From the NCBI GenBank assembly GCA_030390025.1, contig CM059432.1:65288001-65352000 (forward strand): a DNA stretch of 64,000 nucleotides, written 5' to 3'. Positions 6,986 to 64,000 of this stretch are shown in pieces. Made by a program: the position numbers and the translations under genes. The notes beneath the pieces were generated by a model. It was not told the DNA's origin and ran no database searches. It saw only the letters and a list, made by a program, of their open reading frames with translations. This stretch comes from Squalus acanthias. Its lineage: Eukaryota. Position 1 is the first letter of the stretch; every line of letters starts with the position of its first letter.

Positions 6986-7083
6986 TGAACAGGGAAAGAC
7001 TATTTCTTCTGGTTTGGGAATCACTAACAAGGTGTCTTCAATTTAAGAATAAAGTTACTAAGAAAGAACATATATTTATTAGT

Positions 7084-7382: not shown

Positions 7383-7384
7383 TA

Positions 7385-39954: not shown

Positions 39955-40510
39955 AACACCTGGAGTACTGTGAGCAGTTCTGGGCCCCACACCTTAGGAA
40001 GGATATATTGGCCTTGGAGGGAGTGCAGCGTAGGTTTACCAGAATGATACCCGGACTTCAAGGCTTAAGTTATGAGGAGAGATTACACAAATTAGTTTTG
40101 TATTCCCTAAAATTTAGAAGGTTAAGGGGTGACCTGATCGAAGTTTTCAAGATATTAAGGGGAACAGCTAGGGTAGAGAGAGAGAAACTATTTTTGCTGG
40201 TTGGGGATTCTAGGACTAGGGGGCATAGTCTAAAAATTAGAGCCAGACCTTTCAGGAGTGAAATTAGGAAACACTTCTACACACAACGGATGGTAGAAGT
40301 TTGGACCTCTCTTCCGCAAATGGCAATTGATGCTAGATCAATTGTTAATTTTAAATCTGAGATTGATAGCTTTGTATTAATCAAAGGTATTAAGGGATAT
40401 GGGATATGGGCCAAAGGCGGGTATATGGAGTTAGGTCACAGATCAGCCATGATCTTATTGAATGGCGGAACAGACTCGAGGGGCTCAATGGCCTACTCCT
40501 GTTCCTATGC
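39955..40510 (+). mobile_element. CR1 LINE 3' fragment
   Basis: ORF 40008-40613 QRRFTRMIPGL..RLRGDLIEVFK. Confidence 0.88.
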
Positions 40511-40586
40511 TCCTAGAACCAAACACCAAGCAGTCCTTACATCAAATATTTCAATAATTTTTAACAACTATTTACAAAAACATTAT

Positions 40587-41027
40587 ACTGCGGATGCTGG
40601 AAATCTGAAATAAAAACAGAATGCTGAAAACACTAGGCAGGTCAGGCAGCATCTGTGGAGAGAGAAACAGATTTAATGTTTCAGGTCAGAACTGGAAAAA
40701 GTTAGAGATGTAACAGATGTAAAGAAAGAAAAGGTGAGTTTAGAAGAGGTGTAAATGGGGATGGCAGAATCCATTACCATCTCCTTTTGCCTTGCACCAT
40801 AATCCCTTTTGTCTTTTAATCTCTCCTGCCTTCCATCCTATCACAGACCTTCCCTTTTGTTCTTTCCTCCCCTCCTCCCTTTCCCTGCCCCTGCACTTGC
40901 CTAAAATCTGTTACTTCTCTCATTTTTTCCAGTTCTGACAAAAGGTCATCGACCTGAAACGTTAACTCTGTTTCTCTCTCCACAGATGCTGCCTGACCTG
41001 CTGAGTATTTCCAGCATTCTGTTTTTA
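40587..41027. mobile_element. Inverted pair of Penelope-derived tails with 15-bp TSD
   Basis: TTACAAAAACATTAT at 40572-40586 and 41028-41042 flanks a minus-oriented partial tail and a plus-oriented tail; hammerhead motif at 40931-40967 with CTGACAA core variant. Confidence 0.8.
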
Positions 41028-42545
41028 TTACAAAAACATTATTTGGTTCTGTCACTACGCACACTATTGTGACGACACAAACTTTTTCTCTGTGCTATTC
41101 TCTGCAAAATACTGTGAGCCTCTTCAGATGGAGGTGGCCCTTCTCTCAGATCTCCCAAGTCCTAGGATGGACATGGGATAGGCTGACTCTTTTCATGGGC
41201 TGCTTGGCAGCCTGGTCCTACAAACATGAAGACTTCTGTGGGAGCTCTTCTGTGCCGCTGCAGTGAGGGTAAGCAGTCTCTGTGACACGCACACCAGTTT
41301 ATCCACAGGTACTGGGAACAGAATTCTGGTTACTAGCGATCAGTGAGATAACAAATCTCACGGAATCAGAAAGATCTTTACATCCCCGAGAGAGATTCAG
41401 CTGAATATCTTTTAGTCGCTCTGAGATGCTTCCCTGTATACTTTGCAACTCAGTTGTCATTAACTTCTCCAATGTCCCCAAGACCGGCAGCTATTCATTC
41501 AGTGTCTCCACATTGAGCCATATCAAAGTTCTGCGTTTGATTAGCTACCTCCCATTTTGCATCCCTGCTGAAGTTGAATTTCACACCCAAATTTTCCAGG
41601 CTCTCTGGCATATCTGACCCCCGACAGACAGGACTCCCATCCTTGCCCCACAAGCATTACTTAGATTAGTTGAAGCCAAAATTTCTGATAGGATCAGATT
41701 CCTCCAATTTCAGTGGGCATAAGTCCCGCTCCGCTGCATTTACGTCGCAGCATCAGGGCCCCAGAAATTTCCAGGCCCATAAGTACTGGTCCAAACACAC
41801 TCCTGGTGGTTAGAGTGTGAGTTACAATCCCACCCAGTACACAATATAACAATGGTCATGCTAGTTAATCTTCACACTCTGTACCTTCTGGTCTTAGACG
41901 GTAATGCAGTATAACTGCAGCCCTAACTCAATACATCTGTTACTGCCCGCATGCCATGTTCATTACTGCTTTTAGTGAACATGAAGAATAGCAGTTTGTG
42001 CAATGGTACAGCTAAAAAGTTGGGACTCAGCTAATTTATTCATCTAAACCTGAAGGGCTACAGCATTCCAAAATAATGTTGAATGGAGTTTTGAGTCATA
42101 TACCAGCTGGCAATGATGAGTTAATGATGGTGAGAAAAGAGAAGTAGAGGCTATGGAACCATGCTGCAGATAGAGCTTTTATTATGTTTAAGAATACACA
42201 CGGCTGGCACTGGCCCAAGCAAAAATTGGAATAAATGTTTTTGAAGAAGAATTTTGGTGACTGAAGATTGAAAGTTAATGTCATAGTGTAGACAACAATC
42301 TTGCTTCTACCCAGCACAATAGAGGATACTTTCAGAATGGGGAAGAAAATATTTTGGAGATAAATTTCAGTAACTAAGCTTTGACAGGGCTTTTTTTTTA
42401 AGACTATAATTGTACCTCTGCTAAAAGACATCAAACAGTACTTTCAAGGTTGGGAATAAATTTACTAGAGTCTGAAAGCACTTTGAAAACTCAGTCATTT
42501 TAATGTTGGAAAGGTGCTGAGGGAATATACTGGCAGCTGACATTT

Positions 42546-43283: not shown

Positions 43284-44946
43284 GTATTTCTATATCTTTA
43301 TAAAGCAATGTTGCTGCTAATAAAGAACCACACTAGAAAGTACCGTAAAAGGAAAGGGTGTTGTGCTGAATTGCTGCACAATACTAATTATAGTTAGTAA
43401 CACAGCCTCTCAGTCCTCCATTTTTTAAACTGACTGGGAAAAGGCATTTTGTGCAAAATTCTATGTACAGTAATATCGTAAAATTGCTATCCAATGACAT
43501 CATTCTTGTGGACAATAGATTGTTGGTAGTTCTCTCAAGTTACATGGTCAGTTGAAAGGAATTTTATAATGTCACTGGAAAAATACATTTTTATTATTTG
43601 TTCACGGGTTATAGATGATGCTGGAAAGGCCAGCATATACATTGCCCATCCCTACTTGCCCTGAGAAGGTGGTGGTGGGCTTATCTGACCCTGGTGGATC
43701 TTGAATTACTGCAGTCTTTGTGGTGTTGGTTCTCCCACAATGATATTAGGTAGGGTGTTCGAGGAACTTGTTTAAAGACTGTTACATCTCTAACATCTTC
43801 CAGTTCTGATGAAAGGTCACAGACCTGCAACATTAACTTTGTTTAAGAACATAAGAACATAAGAATTAGGAACAGGAGTAGTCCATATGGTCCCTTGAGC
43901 CTGCTCCATCATGCAATATGATCATGGCTTATCTTCGACCTCAACACCACTTTCCCGCCCGAACTCCATGTCCCTTGATTCCCCTAGTGTCCAAAAATCG
44001 ATCTATCTCAGCCTTGAATATACTCAATGGTTCAGCAACCACAGCCCTTTGGGGTAGAGAATTCCAAAGAATCATAACCCTCTGAGTGAAGAAATTCCTC
44101 CTCAACTCAGTCTTAAATGGCCGACCCCTTATCCTGAGACTATACCCCCTAGATCTAGACTCTCCAGCCAGGGGAAACAACCTCTCAACATCTACCCTTT
44201 AAATTCCCCTCAGAATCTTATATGTTTCAAGAAAGGAGGGAGAGAGAAAACAGGGAACTACAGGTCAGTTAGCCTGACATCAGTTGTCGGGAAAATGCTG
44301 GAATCCATTATTAAGGAATTGGTAACAGGGCACTTAGACAATCATAATATGATTAGGCAGAGTCAACATAGTTTTATGAAAAGGAAATCATGTTTAACAA
44401 ATTTATTAGAGTTTTTTGAGGATGCAATTAGCAAGGGAGATAAAGTGGATGTAGTATATTTGGATTTCCAAAAGACATTCGATAAGGTTACTACACAAGA
44501 TATGGCTCATGGGGTTGGGGTAATATATTAGCATGGATAGAGGATTGATTAGCAGACAGAAAACAGAGAGTAGGGATAAAAGGGTCATTTTCAGGTTGAC
44601 AGACTGTAACTAGTGGGGTGCCGCAAGGATCAGCGCTTGGGTCTCAGCTATTTACAATTTATATTAATGACTTAGATGAAGGGACCGAGTGTAATGTCTC
44701 CAAGTTTGTTGACGATACAAAGCTAGGTGGGAAAGTAAGCTGTGAGGAGGACACAAAGAGCCTGCAAAGGGATATAGACAGGTTAAGTGAGTGGGCAAAA
44801 AGGTGGCAGATGAGTATAATGTGGGGAAATGTGAGATTATTCACTTTGGTAGGAAGAATAGAAAAACTGAATTTTTTTAAATGGTGGGAAACTATAAAAT
44901 ATTGGTGTTCGGAGAGATTTAGGTGTCCTTGTACAGGAAACACAAA

Positions 44947-46827
44947 GGCTGGAATTTTACGAGCGCTGAGAGAATGGGTTCGGAGGCGAGTCTGCTGTCA
45001 AAATAGAAAAGATTGACAACGGGTCGGGAATCCGCTGTCAAGCCGCCTCCACGTGAGTCTCCCAAGTGTTGGGTCTGTTAGCGCTGAACAGACCCGACAC
45101 CAAGCGGCAGGGCAGACAAGTTAGATCATTAAATGCATTGTTAAGAGGCAATTAAATCTTATTTTAAGCTTACCTTTAGATTTTTAGAGTTTGTCAACGG
45201 CTTCCCCGCTGCTCGGGGATCACGTCAGGTAAGGAGGTCGGGTGTTGTGTCAGCATGGGATGATTTACTTACTTGACAGCTGCAAATGGTCTATAAAAGC
45301 TTCCATTTCATAGGTGTTCACTTTCCAAGGTTAGAAGCTCTTGCTTACTGCATTTGGAAGACAGATTGAGCTTTATGCAGCTAGCAAGTGTTTGAAGCAA
45401 ACTCTCTATCCAGTGTCACCTCATTGGAACAACCTCTCTCACCCTTGACAGATCGCTTCTGTCATCTCATTCTCACCTCCCATCTATTCCATCAGCATCA
45501 GTGCCCTTGAAAAAATCCATCTTGGTCCACAGAATCCCAACATGATCAGCGCCAACACCAACATCACCGGGCACACCAGCAGCACCAACAACAACACCAA
45601 CCTTCTCCGCAATCACTTGATGCTGCACAGGACATCAACACCCGACCACATTGCTTCCGGGAGGCCAGGGATGGCCTCACCATGGCCAGATTTACTTCAC
45701 GTGACACTGCACACCCTGGCTGCCACATGGTGCGCCAGGTTAACACCACCCCACACTAAGACAATAAAGCATCCCTACAATGCCCAAGCCATTCCTTTCA
45801 CACACATCACCATAGCAAGGAGGGGAGGGGGGGCGGGGAGGTACCATTATGTCTCACTGTTCACTGCAACTCATTAAGCCACTTCCAATGGTGCACACAG
45901 ATCTGTCCAAGAACGCAAAGTGTTGAAAATAAAGATTTCAATGTTTGACAGCACATTACCAGAAACTTCACATGAACATTGGCTAAAACACACAAGTGCC
46001 TACCCTGTGTGTTGTTAGTTGGTATGCTTGCAGTAGGATGAGGGTAAGGGTGAGGGGTGGCTAGTGAGATGGGGAAGTGATAATGTAGATAGAGAAGGAT
46101 GGATGGAGGTGAAAGGTCAGTTGGTGTGAGTAAAGATGTGCAGGAGTAGGGTAGGGAAGACAGAGTGATGTGGATGTGATGAGTGGCACACCAGGATGAG
46201 GTTGAGTATGGCTTGGCAGTAACGTTTCGTGATCTACTGAGATTATTGAAAGGTTTGCGCCACTGCTGCCTGGTCCTCCTGATGACATTCCTGCTTGTGC
46301 CCTCCTGTGCAATGTGCAACCAGGCTGCGTAGGTCTCTTCCGCCCATTGGAAGTGAAGAGAACCTCCCTGCATGCATATGGAGGGAGTCATTGAGAGCCT
46401 GGGTGCAGTCATTCACCTTTGTGCTGTGATTGTCAGTGTTTGCAGCACCTCAAAACTGTAGAACACTGACAGCACAACTGTCAAAATCAATTTGGACATG
46501 GCCCCTTTAAGGAAACCGGCTGATGACGCGTCATCAAATGACGTCATCAGACCCGCTTCCTTTTAATTGGCCGGGAATCTCGCTGGGCGGGCTTAAAATC
46601 AATGTAAAATCACTTGGAGAGAGTGGGCTGGAGCAGGCAGCGGGCTGGGACTGCACTACCGACCCCCCCAGCCACCCCGGACCCCGGACCCCGGACCCCG
46701 GACCCCGGACCCCGGACCCCGGACCCCGGACCCCGGACCCCGGACCCCGGACCCCGGACCCCGGACCCCGGACCCCGGACCCCGGACCCCGGACCCCGGA
46801 CCCTCCTCGGTCGGTGAAATCGCAGCC
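44947..46827. mobile_element. Non-autonomous PIF/Harbinger element inserted in CR1
   Basis: Ends GGCTGGAATTTTAC / GTGAAATCGCAGCC; collinear with 27018-30114 but lacks Myb exons 2-3; CR1 resumes gagttagtatgcagg. Confidence 0.85.
46673..46803 (+). repeat. Perfect 7-bp tandem repeat (ACCCCGG)n
   Basis: About 18 exact units just inside the right TIR of the Harbinger element. Confidence 0.97.
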
Positions 46828-47008: not shown

Positions 47009-50000
47009 CAAGAGCTTGAGCACAGAGCTGGGTGAATCGCAATCGGAGTGGATTGCAAGCAGAGTGGAAGAATTTGGTGATAGTTGGAATTTGGTGTAGA
47101 GGAGGTAGGTGGTTTCTCATGTCCAACTCAAAAGGAGGAGTGGAGCCACAGAACCCAAGGACTCTAAGTTAAGTATCTAGATATCTAATATTTATGTTAT
47201 TTGTATTTTGTATTTCAGTGGTTCTTGTTAAACTTGAGTAAATAATTTTGTCTTTTTTCTCTCTAAGTTAGGACAGTGGGTTAAACTAAGAAGTTTAGTT
47301 AGTAGTCTAATAAATACAGGTATGGCAGTGCACCTCAGTCCTGTCGAATGCATATTCTGTGCCATGTGGGGAGTCCAGGATGCTTCTCGTGTCCTGACCA
47401 ACCACATGTGCAGGAAGTGTCGTCAGCTGGAGGAGCTCGAGCAGCGGCTGGCATCCTGTGAGGCTGAGAGTTCTGTGGATAGCACGTTTCAGGAGGTGGT
47501 CACCCTGCAGCTTAAGAGTTTGCAGGCAGAGGGGGAATGGGTGACCGCCAGACAGACAAGGAGGACCAGGCAGGTAGTGTAGGAGTCCCCTGAGTGCATC
47601 TCAGCTCCCTAACCGGTGGTGAGGGCGATGGTTTTTCTGGGGAGTACAGCCAGAGCCAAGCCCACGGCACCATGGGTGGCTCAGCTGTATGGGGGGGGGG
47701 AGGGCGGGTGTGGAGGATGAAGGTCAGAAAAGCAATAGAGATAGGGGACTCAATAGTTAGGGGAATAGACAGGCATTTCTGCAGCCACAGATGTGACTCC
47801 AGGATGGTATGTTGCCTCCCTGGTGCCAGGGTCAAGAATGTCACTGAGCAGTTGCAAGACATTCTGAGGGGGGAGGGTGAACAGCCAGAGGCCGTGGTCC
47901 ATATTGGTACCAATAACATAGGTAGAAGAGGGATGAGGTCCTGCAGGCAGAATTTAGGGAGCTAGGAAAGAGATTAATAAGCCGGACCTCAAAGGTAGTA
48001 ATCTGCAGATTACTCCCAATGCTACGCACTTGTGAGTACAGAAATAAGAGGATAGAGCAGATGAATGTGTGGCTGGAGTGATGGTGCAGGAGGGAGGGCT
48101 TTAGATTGCTAAGGCATTGGGGCCAGTTCTGGGGGAGGTGGGACCTGTACAAGTCAAACGGGTTGCACCTCAGCAGGGCTGGGACTAATATCCTAGCGGG
48201 GAGGTTTGCTAGTGCTGTTGGGGAGGGTTTAAACTAGCTTGGCAGGGGGATGGGAACCTGAGGGTAGATTCAGAAGGGAGAGAAGCAAAGCTGGAAATGG
48301 AAGCAAGTAAATTAGTAAGTGAGCTTGTAAGGCAGAGGAAACAAAGGCTAGAAAATAGACAATAAAGGGGTTTGGAAGTGCTTAATGGTATATACTTCAA
48401 TGCAAGGAGTCTAGTGACTAAGGCAGATGAGCTGAGGGCACAGATAGACACATGAAAGTATGATATCATAGCTATTACTGAAACATGGCTAAAAGGGCAG
48501 GAATGGCAGCTCAACATTCCTGGTTACAGGGTTTTCAGATGAGATAGAGAGGGAGATAAAAAAGGAGGGGAGTTGCAATATTGGTTAAAGAAACAATTAC
48601 AGCTGTGAGGAGGGATGATATGTTAGAAGGATCATCAAATGAGGCCATATGGGTTGAACTGTAGAACAAAAAAGGGGCAATCACACTGCTGGGAGTGTAC
48701 TATAGACCCCCAAATAGTCAGAGGGAGATAGAAGAGCAAATATGTCGGCAAATTTCTGAGAAGTGCAAAAATAATAGGCAGTAATAGTAGGGGATTTCAA
48801 CTACCCTAATATTAACTGGGATAAAATCAGTGTAAAAGATATAGAGGGTGCAGAATTCTTAATGCTTTCAGGAGAACTTTTTTAGCCAGTATGTAGCAAG
48901 CCCAACAAGAGAGGGGGCGGTTCTGGACTTGGTTTGAGGGAATGAAGCTGGGCAGGTGGAAGGGGTATCAGTGGGAGACCATTTTGGCAGTAGTGATCAT
49001 AATTCATGGGGTACGGTAACATAATGGTTATGTTAATGGACTAGTACTCCAGAGACCTGGACGTGACATGAGTTCAAATCTCACCATGGCAGCTTGGGAA
49101 TTTAAATTCAGTTAATTAAAATAAATCTGGAATAAAAAAGCTAGTATCAGTAATGGTGACCATGAATCTACCGGATTATTGTAAAAACCCATCTGGTTCA
49201 TTAATGTCCTTTAGGGAAGGAAATCTGCCATCCTTACCCGGTCGGGCCTATATGTGACTCCAGACCCACAGCAATGATTCTTAACTGTCCTCTGAATGGC
49301 CTAGCACGCCACTCAGTTGTCCGCTACGAAAAATTGCAGCAGTTCAAGAAGGCGGCTCACCACCACCTTCTCAAGGCAATTAGGGATGGGCAATAAATGC
49401 TGACCTTGCCCACATCCCATGAATGAATTTTTTTAAAAATCAGTTAGATTTGGCGTAATTATGGAAAAGGACAAAGATAGGCCAGGAGTAAAAGTCCTCA
49501 ATTGGGGAAAGGCCAATTTTACTAAGCTGAGATGTGATTTAGCAAAAGTTGACTGGAAACAGCTACTTGAAGGTAAATCAGTGTCAAAGCAGTGGGAGGC
49601 ATTCAAGGAGGAGATAGTGAGGGTTCAGAGCAAGTATGTTCCCTTAAAGAAAAAAGGTAGGACTCCCAAATCTAGAGACCCCTGGATGTCAAGTGGCATA
49701 CAAGGTAGGATAATGAAAAAAAGGGAAGCTTATGTCAGATACCAAAAGCTAAATACTGCAGAAAGCCGAGATGAGTATAGAAAAAGCAGGAGTGAAATTA
49801 AAAAGAAAATTAGGAAAGTAAAGAGAAAGCATGAAAAAATATTGGCAAGTAAAAGCAAGGAAAACCCTAAGATGTTTTATAAATACATAAAGAGCAAGAG
49901 GATAACTAAAGAAAGAGTAGGGCCTATTAGAGACCAAAAAGGTAACCTGTGTGTGGAGGCGGAAGACATGGGTATGATTTTTAATGAATACTTTGCATCT

Positions 50001-51642
50001 GTCTTCACAAAATAGAGGGACGATGCAGACATTGTAGTTAAGGAGGAGGATGTGTGAAATATTAGATGGGATAAACATCGTGAGAGAGGAAGTATTAAGG
50101 GGTTTAGCATCTTTGAAAATAGATAGATCGCCAGGCCCGGCTGTTAAGAGAAGCAAGGGAGGAAATAGCGAAGGCTCTGACCATTATTTTCTAATCCTCT
50201 CTGGCTACAAGTGTGGTGCCAGAGGACTGCTAACGTTGTACCATTGTTTAAAAGGGAGAAAGGGATAGACTGAGTAGTTACAGGCCAGTCAGCCTAACCT
50301 CAGTGGTGGGAAAATTATTGGAAAAAATTCTGAGGAACAGTATTAATCATCATTTAGAAAGGTACAGATTAATCAAGGACAGTCAGCAAGGATTTGTTAA
50401 GGAAAGTCGTGTCTGACTAACTTGATTGAATATTTTGAAGAGGTAATGAGGAGGCTCGATGAGGGTAGCACGTTTGATGTAGTCTACATGGATTTTAGTA
50501 AGGCTTTTTACAAAATCCCACATGGCAGACTGGTCAGAAAAATAAATGCCTATGGGGTCCAGGTGAAAGTAGCAAGTTGGATCCAAAATTGGCTCAGTGG
50601 CAGGAAGCAAAGGGTAATGGTCGACGGGTGTTTTTGTGACTGGTAGGCTATTTCCAGTGGGGTTCCGCAGGGCTCAGTACTAGGTCCCTTGCTTTTTGTG
50701 GTATATATAAATGATTTAGACTTCAATGTAGGGGGCATGATTAAGAAGTTTGCAGATGATACAAAAATTGGCCTGTGGTCGATAGTGAGGAAGAAAGCTG
50801 TAGACTGCAAGAAGATATCAATGGACTGGTAAGGTGGGCAGAAAAGTGGCAAATGGAATTCAATCTGGAGAAGTTTGAGGTAATGCATTTGGGGAGGGCT
50901 AACAAGGCAAGGGAATACACGATAAATGGTAGGATACTGAGAAGTGTAGAGGAACAGAGGGACCTTGGAGTGCATGTCCACAGATCCCTGAAGTTAGCAG
51001 GACAGGTAGAAAAGGTGGTTAAGAAGGCATATGGGATACTTTCCTTTGTTAGCCGAGGCACAGAATATAAGAGCAGGGAGGTTATGCTTGAACTGTATAA
51101 AACACTAGTTAGGCCACTGCTAAAGTACTGCATACAGTTCTGGTCACCACATTACAGGAAAGATGTGATTGCACTGGAGAGGGTGCAAAGGAGATTTATG
51201 AGGATGTTGCCAAGACGGGAGAATTTTAGCTATGAGGAAAAATTGGATAGGCTGGGGTTGTTTTCTTTGGAACAGAGGAGGCTAAGGGGAGACCTGATTG
51301 AGGTGTATAAAATTATGAGGGGCCTAGATAGAGTGGATAGGAAGGACCTATTTCCCTTAGCAGTGAGGTCAATATACAGGGGCATAAATTTAAAGTAATT
51401 GAGGGGAGTTGAGGATAATTATTTTCACCCAGAGGGTGGTGGGGGTCTGGAACTCACTGCCTGAAAGGGTGGTAGAGGCAGAAACCCTCATCACTTGGAT
51501 ATGCACTTGAAGTGCTGTAACCTTCAAGGCTATGGACCAAGAGCTGGAAAGTGGGATGAGGCTGGATAGCTCTTTTTTGGCCAGCACAGACACAATGGGT
51601 CAAATGGCCTTTTTCTGTGCTGTAAATTTCTATGATTCTAAC
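47009..51642 (+). mobile_element. Near full-length CR1 LINE (ORF1 zinc-finger/zipper plus SGNH esterase; ORF2 APE-RT), disrupted
   Basis: ORF1 VECIFCAMW..CRKCRQL and IGDSIVR..CLPGARV..VHIGTNN; ORF2 YFNARSL, ITETWL, GDFN, YMDFSKAF, FADDT; short CTAAC repeat at both ends. Confidence 0.92.
49008..49438 (+). mobile_element. tRNA-derived SINE with LINE-derived tail, inserted in CR1 ORF2
   Basis: B box GAGTTCAAATC; tail homologous to the LINE end at 16200-16310; CR1 reads ..gatcataattca before and aatcagttagattt after. Confidence 0.75.
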
Positions 51643-52258: not shown

Positions 52259-52409
52259 TTAACCAACAGTTTAAAGCATAATAAACAGAGGAAAAATAGA
52301 TGATTGAGAGACAATGGCAAGTATACTGGTGCCTTCTTTCATAATATATAGAATTGTGTATGGATGTGATCTGTATTATCATTGGCATAGTTAATACAAA
52401 TTCCTCTTG

Positions 52410-53431
52410 TGTAGCAGTTGGCGCAGATGCCATGGATTTTTAGATTATGAACCCTTATTAAAAACTGGATATGCTGCTTGGGGTGGGGGGGGGGGGGGGG
52501 GGGGGCGGCGGGGGTGGTGGCGGGGAAGCAGTGAAAAACCACTCAAGCTGGAGATGACTCATTCATATGGAAACGAACTGTCCTTGGGAACAATGGCCCG
52601 AGAGGCCCACTCCCAAGTCTTGATTAAGTCTTGATGACTCATTGTTCTGGTCAAGATGAACTCGTTATTTTAATCGGCTGGAAGATCGAAATGAGTTCAA
52701 AGACCATTCAAACCTGAGAGGAAGCTTGAAGACCATTCCATTAAAACCACAGACAACGGTCTGTGTATTGGAGGGGTATATTAGAGAGCAGTTTGGATAG
52801 CTCTCTCTCTCTCTCTCTCTCTCTCCTGCCCTCCACACAACGGAACGTCAAGAGGAGCAGAGCCTTGCTCTTCCAACCAAGACCGACTTCGACTAAGGCT
52901 GGGACTCACATGCCGCAAGGTCGGTACGGAACCAGGTAACCGAGACATACAGGAGGAAGCCGCAAGCAAGATCAAAAGGGCAATCTAGGTGAGCATTGCC
53001 AAGCCTACACGCCCACAAGATCACTTAGCTGTGTGAGGGGGTGCCTGTATGTTCCTACCAAACCAGAGGGGGTTTAGTGTTGGAAGGGTCCTGTGATAGT
53101 TTAGTTCACGGGAGGGTGTTTTTAGGCCGTGGTATGTCAGCATGGCAGGGGCTTGTTGGACAAGTCAGGGTTGTACTGTTTTAAATTGTACTGTTGTGTT
53201 CACACTGTGTACTGTATGCGAGTGGAGTGGTTTTTGTCAACCTTAATAAACACTGTACGGGTGAGCCCGAAAACGCTGTCCGTGTTCCAATCTGTCCTCA
53301 GTAATCCCTATCATCCAGAACTTGTAGTAAGGGGGTTTGTGTGCTCGCTATGGGTGGGGCAAAACCACTTACAATCATTGGCGATTGCGGCAGGGGCCAT
53401 AGGAAATTGGCCACCGCAAAAAACGGTTACA
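52410..53431 (+). repeat. 5' LTR (1022 bp)
   Basis: TGTAGC...GTTACA termini; TATA-like TATATTAGA at ~52796; AATAAA at 53245-53250; homologous to 61115-61346 plus 63101-63856. Confidence 0.92.
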
Positions 53432-53435
53432 GATT

Positions 53436-53452
53436 TGGCGACCGCGGCAGGA
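53436..53452 (+). promoter_or_regulatory. Primer binding site, tRNA-Arg(TCG)
   Basis: TGGCGACCGCGGCAGGA, 4 nt after the LTR, is complementary to ..TCCTGCCGCGGTCG-CCA, the 3' end of vertebrate tRNA-Arg(TCG) as I recall it. Confidence 0.85.
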
Positions 53453-53472
53453 TGCTAGGTTGTGGATTAGAT

Positions 53473-55136
53473 ATGGACGGTTTGGAGGGCAAGAGTTCCG
53501 GAATGGAGGACAGAGGTTCCTCCTATGTATTTAAAAAGGTTAACGTATCCCAGCAATGGGTGCTGGAGATGTTGTGCTCTGAGAGTCCCCAGGATAGGGC
53601 CGCAGAGTGGACAGGGAGCAAGGAGCACAGGAGTCCAAAGAGAAGGTGATTTGGCTCCTGTGCTTCCAAAAGCAAGTTCAACTGCTCTGGGAGCAGGTTG
53701 AAAAGCTCAAACACGAGCTGAAGGAGTCTGAAGACAAGTCCGACGTGAGGGGGATAGCTGGGAGTAGATTAGTGGAGGAGTTGCCCGAGGAAAGACAGGA
53801 AAGACGCGCACAGGAAGAGACATCCCGTAATATGGGGGAATACCTGCGGTGCCAGGTTATGGAGGCCAGGTTAAATGAGCAGGCCTTACGGGAGGAGAAC
53901 GCAAGATTAACAACGAGAGCTGATGGTTTGGAGGGTCAGCTAAGGGACATTAAAATAGCTCATAAGGTAGCTAGAAGTAGGGGCTATGAAAACTCTGATC
54001 ACGGTCCCTGCGAAGAAAGGATTAAAAAATTGACCCAAGCCTTGTCTGGGGCCAGAGGCATGGTCTATTTAATGGCACCTGGGGAAACCTGGGTGGAGTG
54101 GGATGAGGAGTGTCAGGAAACAGAGGATAAGGTTCAGGACAGGGAAGTCCCACCGGCGCCGGAAGCGCCACCGAGACCAATGTATCCTCTGCGGCAGCAA
54201 AAGTACGGTCCACTCACACCAAACGGTGACCAGGGCCCGCTGCAGAGCGATTACGTGGTCCCATTCACCACCCTGCAGTTGCAAGCCATGGTAGCAGAGT
54301 TGCCTAAACTAAAACAGGACGGGGACCCCTCAGTTCACTTTACAGAGGTCGAGCAGGTAGGGGGATCAACGGGTGTAGTGAGGGTGAGATCCACAGGCTG
54401 ATGCTGCTCTCCCTTGACGGGAAACTGTATCAGAGCCTGTCCGCAGCCACAAACGGGGCGAGGCACCACAGAGGGGTTGAAAGAGGAGATCCTGAGAGTC
54501 ATGGGGCATACCCAGGGTAGTCCGTTCTCACAAGTGGAACAGTTGGCCGGCGAGGCACCGGCTGCATTTGCGGACAGGCAATGGCCGGTGTACGCAAAGG
54601 CAACTGGAGGTGTGCCAGACCGCGCGCAACTGGTAGGGGTCCCCAGAAATCACTGGCTCAGGACCCTGGTAGCAAACAGCCTGCCACGGATTAAAGCCAA
54701 GGCAGAAGCATGGTTTGACTCCAAGAACCTCGCGAACACGGAGGCAGGCGTGCTCCGGAAATTGGGCTTAGCTTTTAGGGCCGGTTCCGGGGAGTAGGTC
54801 AAACACAAGGGGAGGGTACATGGGATGAAGGCCAGTAAGGGGGATAGGAAGGAATGGCGTCAGGAAGGGGGTAACGCCAACAAGTCTAAGACTTGTTTCA
54901 AGTGTGGGAAGACAGGACACTGGAGGTGGGATTGCCCGGCCCAAAAGGGGGGGTCAGGTCAAGGGGGTCCTCCCGTGCGAAAACCCCAGGTCACCGAGGC
55001 GAAGGAGGCGACCGATGAACTGTTTGATGTTCTGGTGGCCGCCCTTCGCATGGTGCTGGGGAAGGTCAAAGGAAGGCTAGACGCTGCCGTGAGCAACATA
55101 ACGCCGGCCTCACCCACATGTCCGCCTTCCTCCTGA
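53473..55136 (+). pseudogene. gag: gag: N-terminal coiled coil, capsid-like region, one CCHC zinc knuckle
   Basis: ORF pieces 53473-, 53607-54401, 54414-54797 and 54825-55136; CFKCGKTGHWRWDC at 54894-54935. Confidence 0.85.
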
Positions 55137-58100
55137 CTAGAACGCGCCCAGCCTGAGTACCTGTGTCCGCTCACTTTTGATGAGTAGGACAGGCCCTGTG
55201 TTGAGATGGGGGTGGAGACGGTGCAGGGGAGATATTTGGTGGACACCAGAGCTTCCAGCACGGTGGTCCATTCGGAAGACCCGACCAATTCACCCTGGTC
55301 TAACAAGGTCCCATTTAGCCTAATGGAATTCACAGGGAACGAGCAGGTGGGGGCAATGTCCAAACCCCTGAGAATAGAGCTAGGGTCCCTCTGCACCACG
55401 TGCAAGTGCGTGCTAATGAAATGGGAGCAACCAGGGTGTGGAGATTCCTCGGGGCTGATTTCATGTTAGCCAACTGGGTCATTGTGGACCTGAGGAATCA
55501 CTGCCTGTGGGGGGCAGTGGTCTCGGACAAGACAGAGGAGGTGATAGTAATCCCCAGAGATAAGGGAGGAGGGGTAGTGTATGCACCATGAAACCCAAAG
55601 GGAGTTACGACCTGGAACAGTTGGTTAGTAGCGCCCCAGCCCAGTACCAGGCGAATGTACGGGACAACCTTGCCGCATTCGCCACCCATAAACACGATTG
55701 TGGCAGGGTGACCGGGGTAGAGGTCCGGGTGCAAGGGGACCCCATGTCACGGCCACAAAAGCAGTATAGTTTCCCCCGGGAGGCAGAAGCCAACTTGGAG
55801 GCGGCACTGGGATCCCTGGTAAAACAGGGGGTGTTGAGACTAATAGCCACCCACGTGAACTCACCACTCTGGCCGGTGAAGAAACCCGACCAGTCGTGGA
55901 GAGCCACCGTGGACTATCGGGTCCTCAATAAGAACATCCCAGCTTGCGCGCCCACAGTCGCAGCTGTCGCCGATCTGATAGGGAGCATTCCAGCAACCGC
56001 AACCACATTCACAGTGCTGGATATCTCCAACGGGTTTTGGTCGATTCCCCTCAGACGGGAAGACCAATACAAGTGTGCATTCACTTTTAAAGGGCAGCAG
56101 TATACATGGACATGCCTTCCCCAGGGGTTCCACAACAGCCCCTCCATATTCCACCAATGCATGGCAGATGCATTAAAAGGCTTCAGCCGACCCCACCAGT
56201 TAATCCAGTACGTGGACGACCTGCTTTTGTTCTCCGCAGAGGGGGAGAACCATGGGCTACTACTGGACGAGCTGCTAAAGCTATTGCAGGAGGGGGGGTT
56301 CAAGGTCAACCCCAAGAAAGCCCAGATCGGCCAGGAGGAAGTCAAATTCCTCGGGCTGACCGTAAGGGCTGGTTAAAGGGCCATAGACGAAGCTAGGAGG
56401 AAGGCAGTACAGGAGCTACCAGCCCCCAAGAATGTGACCGGGGTAAGGTCTTTTCTGGGACTCACAGGGTACTGCCGGGACTTCATAGAGGGTTACGCAG
56501 CCACGGCAGCCCCTCTGCTTCGGCTCCTCCGCAAGGGAGTCGAGTGGGAGTGGGATCAGAACTGCCACTCTCCTCAAAGGGGATTTGCAGACTGCATCCG
56601 CATTGGGAGCCATTAACGGTGGGGAAGAATTCTTCTTAGAGGTAGTAGCCAGCGGGGATAGCTTGAGTGCAGCGTTGCTCCAGGAGCGACACGGCAAGCT
56701 ACGGCCCGTGGCCTACTCATCTAGGGTTCTCACCGAGGTAGAACGGGGATATTCCAACTGCGAGAAGCATCTCCTGGCCACGCATTGGGCTGTAAAGCGC
56801 TCACAGCCCTTTACAGGATCATCCCTGATAGTTCTACTCACCCACCATACCCCCACTTGGATATTGTTGGACGGGAGAATAAAGGACGGGACAGTGAGCA
56901 GTGCTCGCATTGCCCGCTGGACTTTATTGTTCTCGCAGATGAACTTGAGAGTGCAGGGGTTGACCGAGCCCAAGCTAGCAGCCAACATGATTTACCCAGG
57001 GACGGCCCACACGTGTACAGTAGAAGGGGTGTGGGATGTAGATGAAGGATTCTGGGCCGGGATACACCCGACGGGCCAGGACATCTATAAAGACGTGTTC
57101 TATCGTGAAGGGGGAGCGTCTCACCGGGTGCAAAATCTATGACCCTACGGCTAAAATAGCGAAGGCCATTAAACTCCCAACACCCTGAGCACTCAGCACG
57201 CCGAACTGGTGGCGGTGGCGTACGTGGTCACCCACCCCGACGAGTTCCCCACCCACTACACCATTTGCTCAGACTCTATGTTCACGTGCAACTCATGCAC
57301 GGAATACTTGGCAATCTGGGCCAGGCGCGGATTCAAGTCCGCAGATAGGAAGCCCCTAGCAACAGCACCGCTGCTAGGTAAAATTTTGGAGGCCACAGGC
57401 ACCCAGGGAGATCACTATATTCACAAAGTTAAAGCCCATTCAAAGACAGAGCCCAAGTGGGAGGGCAACCAAAAGGCAGATGAGCTGGCCAAACAGGGGG
57501 CCAGGGAAGGAGTATTCTGGGATCCCTACAAAGCAGGTCCGGTAGCCGCAATCCGGGACAAGGGAGGCACACAGCAGATAGCTTTGGCCCCCGACTTAAA
57601 GCAGGTCCAAGTCCAGGATCCCGCCCTTAAGGCCGTCCTGGTAAAGAGAGAGAATGGGGAGTCCATAGAAGGTCCATTCGGGGCAGCGGACATTAGTATC
57701 AAAGAGGGGATGCTTTTCAAAGGGGATCGGTGGGTAGTCCCAGCGCAGCACCGAGAGGAGTTCCTACAGTTGGCCCATGGGGGCCCGGGAGCGGGACACC
57801 CAGGGCCGGAAACTACTTGACAAAGGGTAGAGGAGGCAGGGTGGTGGCCCCAGCTCAGGGAGGATGTCTGAGTTTTCTGTGCGCACTGTTTGGTGTGCGC
57901 AGCCAATAACCCCGATCCGCAGCACAGGAAAGCCCCCATAGGACACACCAGGAGGGTAGAGGGGCCATGGCGGTCCCTGCAGGTCGATTTCATCGGACCA
58001 CTGCCCACCACTAAAGCAGGCAACAAGTACTGTTTAGTCCTGGTGGACGTATTTTCCAAGTGGGTGGAAGCCTTCCCCTGCTGAGCAGCCACGGCACTAG

Positions 58101-58997
58101 CAACAGCTAGAATCCTGGTGAGGGAAGTGTTCTCCCGGTGGGGGCTGCCACAGGTCGTGGAGTCCGACCAAGGGAGTCATTTCACAGGGCAGGTGATGCA
58201 GGCCACCTTAACTCTTGGGAATACAAGGGAAGTGGCATGTGGCTCACAGCCCCCAGTCATCGGGGATTGTGGAGCGCATGAACCGGACACTGAAAGAAAG
58301 ACTGAGGAAGGAGATAAGCCCGTTCCCGCAGAGATGGGACGAGGTCTTGCCTCTAGTCTTAATGTGTGTCCGGGCCAGCCCCTCCAGAAGCACAGGGTAG
58401 TCGCCACACGAGCTTATGACCGGGAGGATTCTGCGCACCCCAACCCATGTGTTGGCGCCGGTCCACACCGAAGCGCAGGTCAGGGAGGTAAACCGGGACA
58501 GGTTTGTCCAGAATCTGTACGAGACTTTAAAACAGATTCACTGGCAGGCAGCCAGTAACCTGGGGAGCCAGTACCAGAAAAATCGGCTGCTGTTAGAACC
58601 CCAGAGAACCCACGAGTGGGAGGTGGGAGACCAGGTAATGGTCCGTAATTTCGCCCGAGTAGGGGCGTTCGAGCCGCTGTATATGGGGCCCTATAATATC
58701 GTGGATAACGCGAGCCCCATAGTATATGCAGTAAAACTCCCGAAACGCACAAAATGGTTTCATGTAAACCAGTGCAAGTTGTTTAACCCCGAGGTGGGGA
58801 AAACAAAGGCCAAGAGGCACCAGGGCACAGCCATGAGCCTGGTGGACGCGGGTCTTCCTCCCATGGTGTGGGACGATGATGACCCGGAGGACGGGGCGGT
58901 AAGGAGGAGCAGTCGGGTCCCACGGCCTAGGGTGCCGTGGATGCCTCCCTTCTTGCCGACCGCGAGCCACAAGAGGCCTCAATGGGAGAGGTCTTAA
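55137..58997 (+). pseudogene. pol: pro-pol: protease, RT, tether RNase H, RNase H, integrase with GPY/F
   Basis: YLVDTRAS and FLGADF (protease); NSPLWPVKKPD, VLDISNGFW, LPQGFHNSP, YVDD (RT); PVAYSSRVL (tether); QHAEL, SDS, KVKAH, GNQKADELAK (RNase H); [33 protein letters not shown] (integrase). Confidence 0.93.
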
Positions 58998-59156
58998 ATG
59001 GGGCGCTCGTTAATGCGGCAGGGAACACTGTAAATATTTTGTAAATAATCAAAACCAGATCCGTGGAGGAAAACCCTCGCACAGAACGGAACTGTTTCGC
59101 TTTTGTTTTGGCAGGGAACCAAAGGAGATCAGAGGAACAGGGAATTTACGTGTGTA

Positions 59157-60916
59157 TGTGGGGGTCGGAACGGGTCTGCCCGGCAGGTGTGTCGATTGCC
59201 TTCTTGCGGCGGTGGCAGGATTCCGGGGCCGGGATCGGATGGGATCAGAGTGGGGACTCCTGCGTGATCCCAGACCCTCCCAACACAGTAAATTCCACAG
59301 AACCGGTAGCACACCAGAAGCCCCTGCCCACAGCCCCACCGGTACAGGAAACACAGATTAGTTGCCCCGCCACCACACCGGGACCGAGGAATGGGTTAGT
59401 GTTCATCCCGACCGGCAAGATCTTGTACCAAGACGTCCACTACGAAGTCGCATCGGTCATTCTAAATTTAACTCGGGTATAGCTGCCCCAGTGGTGTCCG
59501 GTAGAAGTTACGGGGACGTGAATCGGGAAAGTCTGTATGATTTAACGGTAAACCATCGCGTTGGTTCGGGGAGATATAGACGGGGGGTATTTAATGATGC
59601 GGCTACAGCCTTCAGCATAGGCACGTCCATTATCAACAGTATGGATGATGCACAGTTGCAGATGCAGGTCAACACCTTAAGGGACCAGCTGCGAAAGATA
59701 CTGGGGGAGGGTAACGTGCTAGAGGGGTCGGAGTTACGGGAGGACCAGGCTATGACGATACATTTAAAGGACGTCATAGCCGAGCTGGAGGCGCACGCTC
59801 AGACGATCAATAGTTTGATCAGGGAGGATCAGAATGCCTCGGCGCAGGCAGCAAAAAAAACCCGATGCGTGTGTGTTGTACGGTGCGTGGCTGCTGAACG
59901 AAGGGCACAGTAATTTGGAGGACCTACAGCAAGGTCGCGTCTCTTTGTGGGTCAGCAACCGGCACCTCACTGCGCTCAGCCCGTACGAAAATTTAATGAG
60001 CCCGTGCCAACTCCGACTGGCCTCAGCGGCATACCCGGTCCCAGTTGATTGTGGCCAGTCCAACCACACTGTAATGGGGACTGTACTCCGGATGCCAGTA
60101 ATGGGCGGGTCACCGCGGCCGGCACCGGTATACCGAGTAGAGAATATTGGCGTCCTAAGGGACGGGGTGCACATGCGACATCATGGGGCCCCACCGTTTG
60201 TTGTAAAGTGGGAGAACGCCATGACCGGCACTGACCTCAATGGATGCCAAAGCAGGGGCGCGCACGTGGTGTTGTGTCCCCAGCATTTGAATGCGTTTAA
60301 TTGGCCGGTGTGCGGGTTTGAAGCAGAGGGTGCGGAGCCCATTAATTGCACCATGGAGGTGATGGCCCAAAGCCACGTTCCACCTCAGGTAGCATATGCG
60401 GGCAGAGGGACGTACTGTGTCACGACAAGCGTGGACCAGTACTGGGTACACAACGACACTTGGTGCCCGGTCACCGATAAGACTTTCTGCTTCAAACCCC
60501 ACACAGAAGTTCAGGTGGCTCAAGAGCGCATCATTCCCATTCCAGAGCCCACCACGGTACACCTCACGGTGAACGACACGGTACAGGACCTGCAGCAATA
60601 CGTAACATGGTTCAGGTATGAAATTCCTCCTCTGCCCGAACACCTCACAAAATTAATAAAGGAAGTTGAACTCTCCCAAAAGCATTTCTATACCCTTGAG
60701 CAATGGAACAGGGAAACAAGGAATGAGATAAAAAAATTGGTTTCTTCGCCATGGTGGGACATCGGTCTGAATATCGAGATTCCCCCATGGATTCGTGTGA
60801 TTTCTCATGTGATTGTAGTAGTGCAATGTGTGTTAGTGTTTTACCTTCTCCGGTTATCATGCAGAAAGCGAAGTAAAACACTCCGAAACCGGTGGCAAGC
60901 TTTGATTAAAGAATAG
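59157..60916 (+). pseudogene. env: env-like class I fusion glycoprotein
   Basis: Three ORF pieces; furin site RYRR (59572-59583), fusion-peptide-like GVFNDAATAFSIGTSII, heptad region, Cys-rich region, N-glycosylation sequons, C-terminal TM (VISHVIVVVQCVLVFYLL) and basic tail. Start codon uncertain. Confidence 0.85.
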
Positions 60917-61103
60917 CCCGGAGTTGACTGTCTGTTTGTATATATACCTGTAACTGTGATGTGATTTGTTGTATAAAGTGTGAGATACAGGACCCTGGGG
61001 TAAAATTTGATGTACGGTTTGGTTGGGATATACAGTGCGCCTCCCGCAGCGGAAGACGACAGAACTTTTGATGATATTTCTGTTTGGGAAAAGTTGAAAT
61101 ATC

Positions 61104-61112
61104 AAAGGGGGG
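61104..61112 (+). promoter_or_regulatory. Polypurine tract
   Basis: AAAGGGGGG followed by CC and the TG start of the 3' LTR. Confidence 0.8.
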
Positions 61113-61346
61113 CCTGTAGCAGTTGGCACAGACGCCATGGATTTTTAGATTATGAACCCTTATTAAAAACTGGACAGGCTGCTTGGGGGTGGGGAAGCAG
61201 TGAAAAATCACTCAAGCTGGAGATGACTCATTCGTATGGAAACGAACTGTCCTTGGGAACAATGGCCCGAGAGGCCCACTCCCAAGTCTTGATTAACAAG
61301 GCTGATGACTCATTGTTCTGGTTAAGATGAACTCGTTATTTTAATC

Positions 61347-63090
61347 CGATAGCAAAATACTGCGGATGCTGGAAAGTTGAAACAACAACAAAAAACGCTG
61401 GAAAAATTCAGCAGGCCAGGCAACATCCATGGAGAGAGAAACAGAGTTAACGTTTCAGGTCGAAACCCTTCGTCAGAACTGAGAAAAAAGCAGGAAATGA
61501 AACAGATAAAAAAGCAAGGGGGAGGCTGTCGTCTTCCGCTGCGGGAGGTGCACTGTATATCCCAACCAAACCGTACATCAAATTTTACCCCAGGGTCCTG
61601 TATCTCACTTTATACAACAAATCACATCACAAAGATGTGCGGGTTAGGTTGATTTGGCTATGATAAATTGACCCTTAGTGTTAGGGGGGATTAAATGCGT
61701 GGGGTTACGGGGATAGGGTGGGATATGTTAGGGGGGTTTAAATACGTGGGGTTACGGGGATAGGGTGGGATATCTGTACTGTGGGGATTCTGTGATTCAC
61801 AGTTACAGGTATATATGTGGTAGGGGCCGAGGTTATGATCTGAAATTGTTGAACTCGATATTGAGTCTGGAAGGCTGTAAAGTGCCTAAACGAAAGATGA
61901 GGTGCCGTTCCTCGAGCTTACACTGAGCTTCAGTGGAACAATGCACGAGGCTGAGGACAGTGAGGTCTGAGTGGAAGTGGAGAGGTGAATTAAAGTGACA
62001 AGCGACCGGAAGCTCGGGGTCACCCTTACGGACTGAACGGAGGTGTTCCGCAAAGCGGTCACCCAATCTGCGTTTGGTCTCCCCAATGTAGAGGAGACCA
62101 CATCGTGAGCAGCGAATACAGTATACTAGATTGCAAGAAGTACAAGTAAATCGCTGTTTCACCTGGAAGGGGTGTTTGGGGCCCTGGAGAGTGGGAAGGG
62201 GGGAGGTATAAGGGCAGGTGTTGCATCTCCTGCGCTTGCACGGGAAGGTGCCGGGCGAGGGGGAAGGGGTGCTGGGTGTGATAGAGGAGTGGACTAGGGT
62301 GTCTCGGAGGGAGCGGTCCCTACGGAATGCTGAAAGGGGAGGTGAGGGGAAGATACGTTTGGTGGTGGGATCACGTTGGAGGTGGCGGAAATGGCGGAGG
62401 ATGATCCGTTGAATGTGGCGGTTGGTGGGGTGAAAGGTGAGGACAAGGGGAACTCTATCGTGGTTCCGGGAGGGAGGGGCCGGGGTGAGGGCAGAAGTGT
62501 GGGAGATAGAACGGACACGGTCGAGGGCCGTGTCGACCACGGTAGAGGGGAATCCTCGGTTGAGGAAAAAGGAAGACATGTCGGAAGCACTGGTATGGAA
62601 GGTGGCATCGTCAGAGCAGATGCGGCGGAGATGGAGAAACTGGGAGAACGGAATAGAATCCTTACAGGAGGCGGGGTGGGAGGAAGTGTAGTCCAGGTAG
62701 CTGTGGGAGTCAGTGGGCTTGTAGTGAATGCTGGTCAATAACCTATCCCCAGAGATGGAGACGGAGAAGTCGAGGAAGGGAAGGGAAGAGTCGGAGATGG
62801 ACTATGTGAAGGTGAAGGCAGGGTGGCAAAGTGAATGAAATTGTCTAGTTCAGGGCGAGAGCAGGAAACGGCACCGATACAGTCATCAATGTACCGGAAA
62901 AAGAGGTGAGGGAGGGGACCCGAGTAGGACTGGAACAAAGAGTGTTCCACATATCCCACGAAAAGGCAGGCATAGCTAGGACCCATGCGGGTACCCATAA
63001 CAACACCTTTGATTTGGAGGAAATGAGTGGAGTCAAAGGAGAAGTTGTTCAATGTGAGAACAAGTTCAGCCAGGCAGAGGAGGGTGGCGG
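61347..63090 (-). mobile_element. 5'-truncated Penelope-like element (RT C-terminus plus GIY-YIG endonuclease) with chimeric 3' region
   Basis: QIKGVVMGTRMGP, RYIDD, YKPTD, CxxxxCxxC linker, VYCIRCSRCGLLYIGETKRRL; 10-bp TSD TATTTTAATC (61337-61346) / TATTTTACTC (63091-63100). Confidence 0.92.
61445..61480 (-). ncRNA. Minimal type I hammerhead ribozyme in the Penelope tail
   Basis: Minus strand AGTT-CTGACGA-AGGGT-TTCG-ACCT-GAAACGTT-AACT: intact core, stem II with UUCG loop, stem I AGTT/AACT. Confidence 0.8.
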
Positions 63091-64000
63091 TATTTTACTC
63101 GGCTGGAAGATCGAAATGAGTTCAAAGACCATTCAAACCTGAGAGGAAGCTTGAAGACCATCCCCTGAGGCCATGTGTCCATTAAAACCACAGACAGCGG
63201 TCTTTGTATTGAAGGGTTATATTAGAGAGCAGTTTGGATAGCTCGCTCTCTCTCTCTCCTGCCCTCCACACAACGGAACGTCAAGAGGAGCAGAGCCTTG
63301 CTCTTCCAACCGAGACGGACTTCGACTAAGGCTGGGACTCGCATGCCACAAGGCCGGTACGGAACCAGGTAGCCGAGACGTACGGGAGGAAGCTGCAAGC
63401 AAGATCAAAAGGGCAATCTAGGTGAGCATTGCCAAGCCTACACACCCACAAGATCACTTAGCTGTGTGAGGGGGTGCCTATATGTTCCTACCAAACCAGA
63501 GGGGGTTTAGCGTTGGAAGGGTCCTATGATAGTTTAGTTCACGGGAGGGTGTTTTTAGGCCGTGGTAAGTCAGCACGGCAGGGGCTTGTTGGACAAGTCA
63601 GGGTTGTACTGTTTTAAACTGTACTGTTGTGTTCACACTGCTCGTACTGTATGCGAGTGGAGTGGTTTTTGTCAACCTTAATAAACACTGTACGGGTGAG
63701 CCCGAAAACGCTGTCCATGTTCAAATCTGTCCTCAGTAATCCCTATCGTCCAGAACTTGTAGTAAGGGGGTTTGCGTGCTCACTACGGGCGGGGCGAAAC
63801 CACTTACAATAATTGGCGATTGCGGCAGGGGCCATAGGAAATTGGCCACCGCAAAACTTGTGACTATGTCTAGAAAATATGAAATACATATTTCCCACTT
63901 TCCCTTGAATAGGGTTATTCAGTACAATGGGGAAATGTTATCACCTTTGGTTCTTTTGCTCCATGTTTTTCATTCAGCAGCCTGATGATATAAGTAGTCC

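Follow-up and report, generated by a model that had tools for sequence, protein, structure and literature searches.

The question raised by this locus is which retroviral lineage combines a reverse transcriptase (RT) of retroviral type with an envelope resembling the fusion (F) protein of paramyxoviruses. The stretch that we analysed, hereafter the window, consists of 64,000 nucleotides of contig CM059432.1 (positions 65,288,001 to 65,352,000), and it carries a provirus at 52410-63856 on the plus strand. The original prediction had described this provirus as a complete lokiretrovirus (Loki) that might extend the host range of that group to cartilaginous fish. Our analysis leads to another answer: the provirus probably belongs, as a dead copy, to a large family of endogenous retroviruses (ERVs) that are canonical and not Loki and that fall in the class III zone related to the snakehead retrovirus (SnRV; clade Huo, Xu et al. 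2018); its host would be an elasmobranch.

All the parts that had been announced for this element were found at about the expected places by Pfam searches and comparison of the long terminal repeats (LTRs). They follow the order LTR, primer binding site (PBS) for tRNA-Arg, gag, protease (pro), RT, tether, RNase H, integrase (IN), env, polypurine tract (PPT) and LTR, with a 4-bp target site duplication (TSD). The Pfam domains zf-CCHC, RVT_1, RT_RNaseH (the tether), RNase_H, rve and SH3_Tf2-1 succeed one another as expected and make this an ERV with a dual RNase H; no match to a capsid, which in Loki resembles that of MuLV and Ty3, was obtained with Pfam in the window. The traits of canonical Retroviridae are present (LTRs of the TG...CA type, tRNA PBS, PPT, gag-pro-pol-env and short TSD). 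"Complete" holds for the layout but not for the coding capacity, as tblastn breaks pol, with its shifts of frame and in-frame stops, into five segments and env into three, nor for the 3' LTR, which is interrupted. With these stops, frameshifts and split LTR, the copy is dead.

We then investigated the position of the RT. Its frame contains LPQG and YVDD, as had been predicted. LPQG is the motif of SnRV and of foamy, gamma and epsilon viruses (PMC7947760 supplement), whereas PFG stands at this place in 24 out of 24 Loki RTs of data set S3 (Wang and Han 2020, PMC7947760). From 188 collected proteins, 183 gave an RT match, and 155 of these, together with the window RT, were long enough for a FastTree phylogeny. 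In addition, IQ-TREE was run with LG+G4 on 74 picked rows and with a mixture model on 45 rows. Reference labels came from source names and from motif matching by eye to data set S3 of Wang and Han. The SnRV pol reference is 99% identical to a viral contig of 10,688 nt that we took as the SnRV genome, whose published length is 10,688 nt (PMC12193657). The window RT falls inside the canonical retroviruses (Ortho- and Spumaretrovirinae) with the 74 rows (100/95), with the mixture model (100/98) and likewise with FastTree, and it forms one group with the "NYNRIN-like" pols of frog and coelacanth (94/94 and 89/97). In all three trees, the Loki RTs form a separate clade (100/100 and 99/99). The closest named pols are these same frog and coelacanth proteins (49-57% RT identity); in the tree alignment, identity to the window RT is 43% for SnRV and 35-40% for Loki. 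The approximately unbiased (AU) test rejected a grouping of the window RT with Loki (P = 0.021) and did not reject a grouping with SnRV and the NYNRIN-like pols (P = 0.346). SnRV is the sister group of the window clade with a support of 0.86 in FastTree. The RT is thus located inside the known retroviruses, though not firmly inside one named genus, a result that comes close to the one which the original prediction had named as refuting it.

The frog and coelacanth proteins (P0002-P0006, P0009, P0015-P0018 and P0042) owe the names "NYNRIN-like" and "Gypsy retrotransposon integrase-like 1" to automatic annotation. They are complete pols of retroviral type belonging to the clade of the window RT, a lineage that may stand close to the source of the retroviral domains of mammalian NYNRIN.

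The IN is less informative. A position close to CGIN1/NYNRIN is a trait of the Loki INs. The tree of the window IN, which did not include mammalian CGIN1, is poorly resolved and places this IN in a set (90/92) with the NYNRIN-like, two Loki and 14 gypsy INs; the window IN is 41-44% identical to the two Loki INs. Because a Loki-like IN is common to the whole NYNRIN-like group, it is not diagnostic. The IN had also been called gypsy-like, but it is not especially so, since among solved structures the foamy-virus IN (1.8e-14) outscores that of Ty3 (1.2e-8).

Several results weigh against this placement. The RT trees were built without class II or Odin sequences; SnRV is an open fork in the IQ-TREE trees, where it is not resolved as sister; and the AU test does not reject a grouping with foamy viruses (P = 0.071). 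Moreover, the window IN stands apart from the SnRV, ERV-L, feline foamy and gamma/epsilon INs, and the RNase H comparison puts the NYNRIN-like pols at the top, followed by Loki and SnRV at nearly the same level.

To what extent the RT and the env belong together was examined in the 3.7-Gb assembly. The window RT has at least 150 matches in the genome (84-100% identity) and the window env at least 119, with more than 10,000 first-look candidates in each case. Among the 150 RT matches, 24 have a listed env match within 12 kb, each time on the same strand and with the RT upstream (24 out of 24). This count used 114 env places of the window type and 2 of the 94 places of another subfamily, and the window is itself one of the 24. 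This RT is therefore physically linked with this env across the family, and the env is tied to it across subfamilies that are 64-93% identical. The other subfamily has 94 env matches, 85 of them without a stop in the matched part; when 30 of its loci were compared in pairs, their DNA was 73-99.97% identical. As its loci reach 99.97% identity, the family includes recent insertions. In this younger subfamily, long open frames and near-identical copies are numerous, the env is about 64% identical to that of the window (one copy compared), and the LTR does not match the window LTR.

Frames of natural sister copies allowed the envelope to be described. Visible in them are a hydrophobic stretch of signal-like character, a head bearing an immunoglobulin (Ig)-like GxYxC motif, a Pro/Thr linker and an RQRR site, followed by a weakly hydrophobic fusion peptide, a heptad region, a cysteine-rich region, a second heptad region and a transmembrane segment. 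The marks of gamma-type (class Ia) envelopes, i.e. CX6CC and the immunosuppressive domain (ISD), are absent from the three sister env frames checked. In the ESM atlas, a Baculo_F cluster, mostly arthropod, came first (0.96), with Fusion_gly F0 clusters at 0.95 (82% of members), and the 10 best family matches out of 10 belong to one family or clan. We also compared by eye, and thus without an E-value, the Loki Env printed in the supplement with the Env of the window family, as no Loki loci were found in viral contigs. The motif order and the cysteine spacing are the same: PGP-x-x-G, the basic cleavage site, L-x-x-GR-x-P, Q-x-x-LA...A-x-P-x-x-x-D, L-x-x-P, Y-x-x-x-x-x-N-x-G and four cysteines (C-x9-C, CG, C). 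No env relatives were found in metagenome and viral contigs, nor were loci of the NYNRIN-like pol P0005 in viral contigs.

The envelope of SnRV provides a further comparison. When aligned with the profile of the shark Envs, SnRV Env is collinear over 287 columns, with 24% identity and the cleavage sites in register. In a Smith-Waterman shuffle test with 13 full-length rows, SnRV Env reached z = 12.0, none of 200 shuffles scoring as high, and z = 9.9 with shuffled blocks of 10 residues; the controls (reversed Env, two Pol pieces and Gag) all gave |z| ≤ 1.2. The CX6CC and ISD motifs were searched for in SnRV Env and neither was found. The SnRV genome also has gag, a stop and pol in one frame and a single CCHC knuckle, as in the window family. 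Other likenesses are the LPQG/YVDD RT, an LTR ending in TTACA and the Y-x-C-M-W motif in the N-terminal Env head. On the other hand, the Env frame of SnRV is longer (1134 aa from stop to stop, with a long tail), accessory open reading frames are known in SnRV and none was identified in the window provirus, and its PBS sequence is not that of the window provirus; we take it to be an Arg(ACG) site. Given the shuffle test, SnRV Env and the Env of the shark family are taken to be homologous.

Two observations were made on the SnRV genome itself. The region 6131-9535 encodes an Env that appears to be F-type, with several basic cleavage-like sites. Its N-terminal part contains the Y-x-C-M-W motif twice, which suggests one or two Ig-like head domains.

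The original prediction of an F-like env is thus supported by the ESM atlas and by the SnRV shuffle test, with no backing from a fold, and we regard the envelope of the window family as F-type on these sequence comparisons. A series of profile and structure searches argues in the opposite direction. Atlas recognition was 1586, below the 2300 mark of the tool, which makes the atlas score weaker evidence. The Pfam profile PF00523 matched 1 out of 36 Env rows (E 0.0096) and none of the window env pieces (genome-wide it gave 0 matches, but its control also matched nowhere), and the Ig head remained below threshold with Pfam Ig_3 (E 0.07-0.11). No F protein was found when the Env profiles were compared with PDB sequences. 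AlphaFold2 models of Env reached a predicted local distance difference test (pLDDT) score of 31.9 when built from 7 rows and of 35.4 when built from 36, neither being usable. With the pLDDT-35 model, Foldseek found nothing in BFVD and nothing significant in the PDB (best E 3.3e-3, none at E ≤ 0.001); the five best rows, none of them significant, were foamy Env (top) and the F protein of respiratory syncytial virus. Finally, hhalign gave E 0.045 and a probability of 1% for SnRV Env against the shark profile, and hmmsearch with the Env profile missed SnRV Env among the SnRV frames (negative score).

The scenario that we favour for this provirus would start with an exogenous SnRV-related retrovirus that was primed on tRNA-Arg(UCG), produced Gag-Pol by stop-codon read-through and integrated with a 4-bp duplication. 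Entry would have relied on a furin-cleaved class Ib (paramyxovirus-F-like) fusion protein, presumably an F-type trimer, with the N-terminal Ig-like head as a probable receptor-binding module; the addition of an N-terminal binding module is one way to extend the F scaffold (Fernandez et al., PMC11468914). Germ-line entry and amplification would have been followed by the decay of this copy and a hit by a Penelope-like element. The F-type Env, homologous to that of Loki, would have been inherited in the SnRV-related lineage. Since F-type Envs occur in Loki, foamy and SnRV-related viruses, this type may predate the gamma-type envelope. More tentatively, we propose that SnRV and the shark family constitute an unrecognised third lineage with an F-type env, combining an Ig-like head and an F core, whose Env is linked by sequence to that of Loki. 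Together with foamy Env, this lineage could then indicate that the F-type was ancestral to canonical retroviruses and Loki and that the gamma-type was a later replacement.

Among the other explanations, a sideways capture is a live alternative to inheritance and, in our judgement, quite possible. In that case the RT is correctly placed, and the SnRV/shark lineage took its F-type env from another virus with such an envelope, Loki-like or not. Anamniote ERVs often exchange env genes, and some class III pols are accompanied by a gamma-type env (10.1101/2021.11.23.469661; PMC8278194). Moreover, env is missing from the Odin elements, the sister group of Loki (PMC9040795), and an exchange with Loki is plausible because the IN is also Loki-like. 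However, the env is fixed to this RT across the subfamilies, it is present in sawshark and catshark, and it is homologous yet very distant to SnRV Env; any capture would therefore be ancient. With foamy viruses and Loki, three F-type lineages would also surround the base of the tree, which fits capture less well.

It is unlikely that the family is a deep foamy-related (clade Tu) lineage sharing its F-type Env with spumaviruses by descent. Foamy Env is F-like (PMC11468914). The best solved-structure matches of both RT and IN are foamy virus proteins, although no SnRV-type PDB protein was competing among the listed matches, and both the top Foldseek row and the AU test leave room for this relationship. 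Nevertheless, foamy viruses never grouped with the window RT in the three trees, and the CCHC knuckle and the gag-stop-pol frame of the window match SnRV. Foamy Gag is not known to have such a knuckle, and foamy Pol is translated from its own RNA.

A lokiretrovirus extending its group to cartilaginous fish is very unlikely. The dual RNase H, the Env motifs that match Loki Env by eye and the loose set that joins the window IN to Loki INs are compatible with it. In both cases the Env resembles the F protein of Mononegavirales, with a basic cleavage site (RxK/RR in Loki), a coiled coil and a transmembrane segment, a likeness judged by the atlas and by eye and not by fold. Nonetheless, the tether and the second RNase H are common to all retroviruses and so not diagnostic of Loki, while the Loki RTs read PFG and form a clade sister to all canonical retroviruses, where the window RT is not found. 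In addition, Loki Env has no long head, its F2 part beginning about 25 residues in, contrary to the N-terminal head of the window family, and the optional smc gene of Loki was not seen in the window provirus. The best of 53 scored matches of lamprey Loki Pol in this genome have only 32-36% identity. The Loki label is therefore rejected on the RT motif, the trees and the AU test, and with it the proposed extension of host range. It was right that chondrichthyans lie outside the Loki host list: none of the six chondrichthyan genomes screened is marked positive in the supplement of PMC7947760. Lastly, an env-bearing Ty3/gypsy element (errantivirus), which the mostly arthropod Baculo_F cluster and the SH3_Tf2-1 domain at the IN end might evoke, is refuted by the dual instead of single RNase H and by the separation of the RT from all 14 gypsy rows (100/99, 74-row tree), and as no homologous vertebrate elements were found in PMC13524379 either, its probability is negligible.

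The class to which the family belongs is already known. ERVs clustering with SnRV have been described in cartilaginous fish (PMC4422223, PMC6001957, PMC4977317), and class III RTs make up the majority of chondrichthyan ERV matches (PMC11089739). CmiERV lineage I of the elephant shark is similar to the window provirus in that it clusters with SnRV, measures 9.6 kb and has an LTR divergence of 0.033, but its host is a holocephalan (PMC4422223). A search of the CmiERV supplement for the DNA motifs of the window PBS and RT gave no match, which is a weak test, and this lineage may or may not be the same as the window family.

In contrast, a connection of Loki, SnRV and a canonical RT through the envelope seems not to have been described. 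Orthoretroviral Env has been assigned to class Ia and foamy Env alone to class Ib (Fernandez et al., PMC11468914); SnRV itself is placed in the Orthoretrovirinae as unclassified (PMC12193657). Foamy Env thus offers a precedent for an F-type fusion core in a canonical retrovirus, as proposed for the window family. Its receptor-binding domain is inserted within the surface subunit (PMC11468914), unlike the head of the window family, which is N-terminal, and no sequence similarity was shown between the two. In the consulted text of PMC13524379, canonical vertebrate retroviruses generally have a retroviral class I Env and Loki is named F-like, SnRV being unmentioned. The terms searched did not reveal SnRV in the main texts of PMC12583693, PMC12690878, PMC9967133 and PMC8278194 either. 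A survey of anamniote env took in the gamma- and beta-types only (10.1101/2021.11.23.469661). In the literature searched, which did not extend to subscription journals and bioRxiv supplements, no F-type env was described for SnRV or for any shark ERV. Finally, no similarity was detectable between canonical and Loki Envs in PMC9040795, where Wang and Han preferred independent origins.

If true, the reading of the F-type as ancestral would run against this published preference. The family is a candidate bridge between Loki and canonical envelopes: with a canonical RT accompanied by an F-type env homologous to that of Loki, and with a link to the Env of SnRV, a cultured virus classed in the Orthoretrovirinae, the origin of the retroviral env becomes testable by sequence and structure. 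Its copies, abundant and ranging from old to very young, provide ample natural material. Such a family would escape both RT-based Loki screens and gamma-type env screens. The sequence evidence, which has no fold behind it, hints that the F-type envelope is the older kind in retroviruses.

The features of the provirus are listed in Table 1.

Table 1. Features of the provirus, with positions in the window
Feature	Position	Strand	Evidence
TSD, 5' copy (CTTG)	52406..52409	+	sequence
5' LTR, 1022 bp, TGTAGC...GGTTACA	52410..53431	+	LTR comparison
TATA-like element at 52777, AATAAA at 53245	inside 5' LTR	+	
PBS, 17 nt, complement of the 3' end of host tRNA-Arg(UCG)	53436..53452	+	genome pattern search, ARAGORN
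gag frame, coiled-coil-like N-terminal part, two premature stops, final TGA at 55134	53598..55136	+	
Single CCHC zinc knuckle in gag	about 54888-54938	+	Pfam zf-CCHC
Aspartic protease, starts in gag frame, frameshifted	55188..55603	+	tblastn; weak RVP match E 0.19
RT, LPQG and YVDD, one in-frame stop	55564..56580	+	RVT_1 E 2.3e-35
Tether (degenerate first RNase H)	56573..57140	+	RT_RNaseH E 1.3e-18
Second RNase H, retroviral-type	57173..57520	+	RNase_H E 4.5e-14
IN: HHCC, core, SH3-like C-terminus; stops and one frameshift	57730..58997	+	
env, three frame segments, start codon not located; in order: end of Ig-like head (GxYxC), Pro/Thr linker, F2-like part, RYRR cleavage site, fusion peptide, heptad, Cys-rich F1-like part, heptad, W-rich juxtamembrane part, transmembrane segment	59045..60916	+	
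PPT	61104..61114	+	sequence
3' LTR, first piece	61115..61346	+	
Later insertion splitting the 3' LTR	61347..63087	-	
3' LTR, second piece, without the last 10 bases	63088..63856	+	
TSD, 3' copy (CTTG)	63857..63860	+	

The end of the 5' LTR had been set at 53421 and was moved to 53431 (...GGTTACA), as 39 of the 40 scored genomic LTR matches reach within two bases of that end; only the window's own 3' LTR stops 10 bases short. The two LTRs differ at 40 of 980 aligned sites (Kimura two-parameter distance 0.042). Depending on which of the two rates of Han 2015 (PMC4422223) is applied, this distance corresponds to about 10 million years or to about 96 million years, and the age of the provirus is therefore poorly fixed. 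The PBS begins four bases past the 5' LTR end. Its complement, extended by the tRNA loop motif, has 429 matches in the genome (0 for the control pattern), almost all of the first 100 listed being within tandem arrays, and ARAGORN identified one of these places as tRNA-Arg(tcg). Large tandem arrays with a period of about 1,623 bp occupy about 39.0-42.2 Mb of contig C26 of the assembly, with one tRNA-Arg(UCG)-like 3' end per unit; this array-borne tRNA is the one on which the provirus would prime. The gag and pro genes share one frame with a TGA between them. Nine sister loci were examined, and the TGA lies at the same position after the knuckle in all five that show both the knuckle and the protease motif, a recurrence that suggests read-through.

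Concerning the host, an elasmobranch is probable, as had been proposed. Two species alone, the sawshark Pristiophorus japonicus and the catshark Scyliorhinus torazame, provide named env relatives, and six exons of the sawshark Niban1 model match the genome at 64-87% identity (no outgroup control). In a "Niban 1-like" gene model of P. japonicus, Niban1 exons are joined to 250 residues of this env family, which is probably an annotation artefact due to an intronic provirus and possibly a chimeric transcript. Near-identical env DNA also occurs in sequencing runs under six organism codes from nine studies, to which we give little weight, four runs having been looked at; no RNA run is listed among the carriers of this DNA. 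Short contigs related to it are present in four runs whose RNA nature is a guess, and we make no claim of expression.

An insertion of 1.74 kb, made up of Penelope-like and short interspersed element (SINE)-like sequence, splits the 3' LTR at 61346/63088. The insertion includes a 5'-truncated Penelope-like element with an RT end, a GIY-YIG domain (61833-62801) and a hammerhead-like core (61452-61476), and it is flanked by a 13-bp target duplication (11 of 13 positions alike). The Rfam scan of the window gave 0 matches. The insertion contains an inverted copy of the proviral segment 60940-61062 (97% identical), whose source lies 285-400 bases upstream of the insertion site. This copy, found at 61526-61631 and about 61796-61815, is split by a SINE-like piece (61630-61777) and looks like the product of a template switch onto nearby DNA during insertion.

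Elsewhere in the window, two Ig-domain host exons are located on the minus strand at 752-907 (near 820) and about 36000-36110 (near 36059). We take them to be PXDN-like, which fits the PXDN exons of the original prediction, and the provirus is likely intronic and antisense to this host gene. A GA-rich tandem repeat at 1250-2745 generates long spurious open reading frames on both strands. Fragments that we presume to be long interspersed elements of the CR1 type lie at 13455-13904, 24701-26580, 39912-40613, 44058-45016 and 49437-51398, and Penelope-like tails at 7281-7376, 11530-11684 and 40585-41033.

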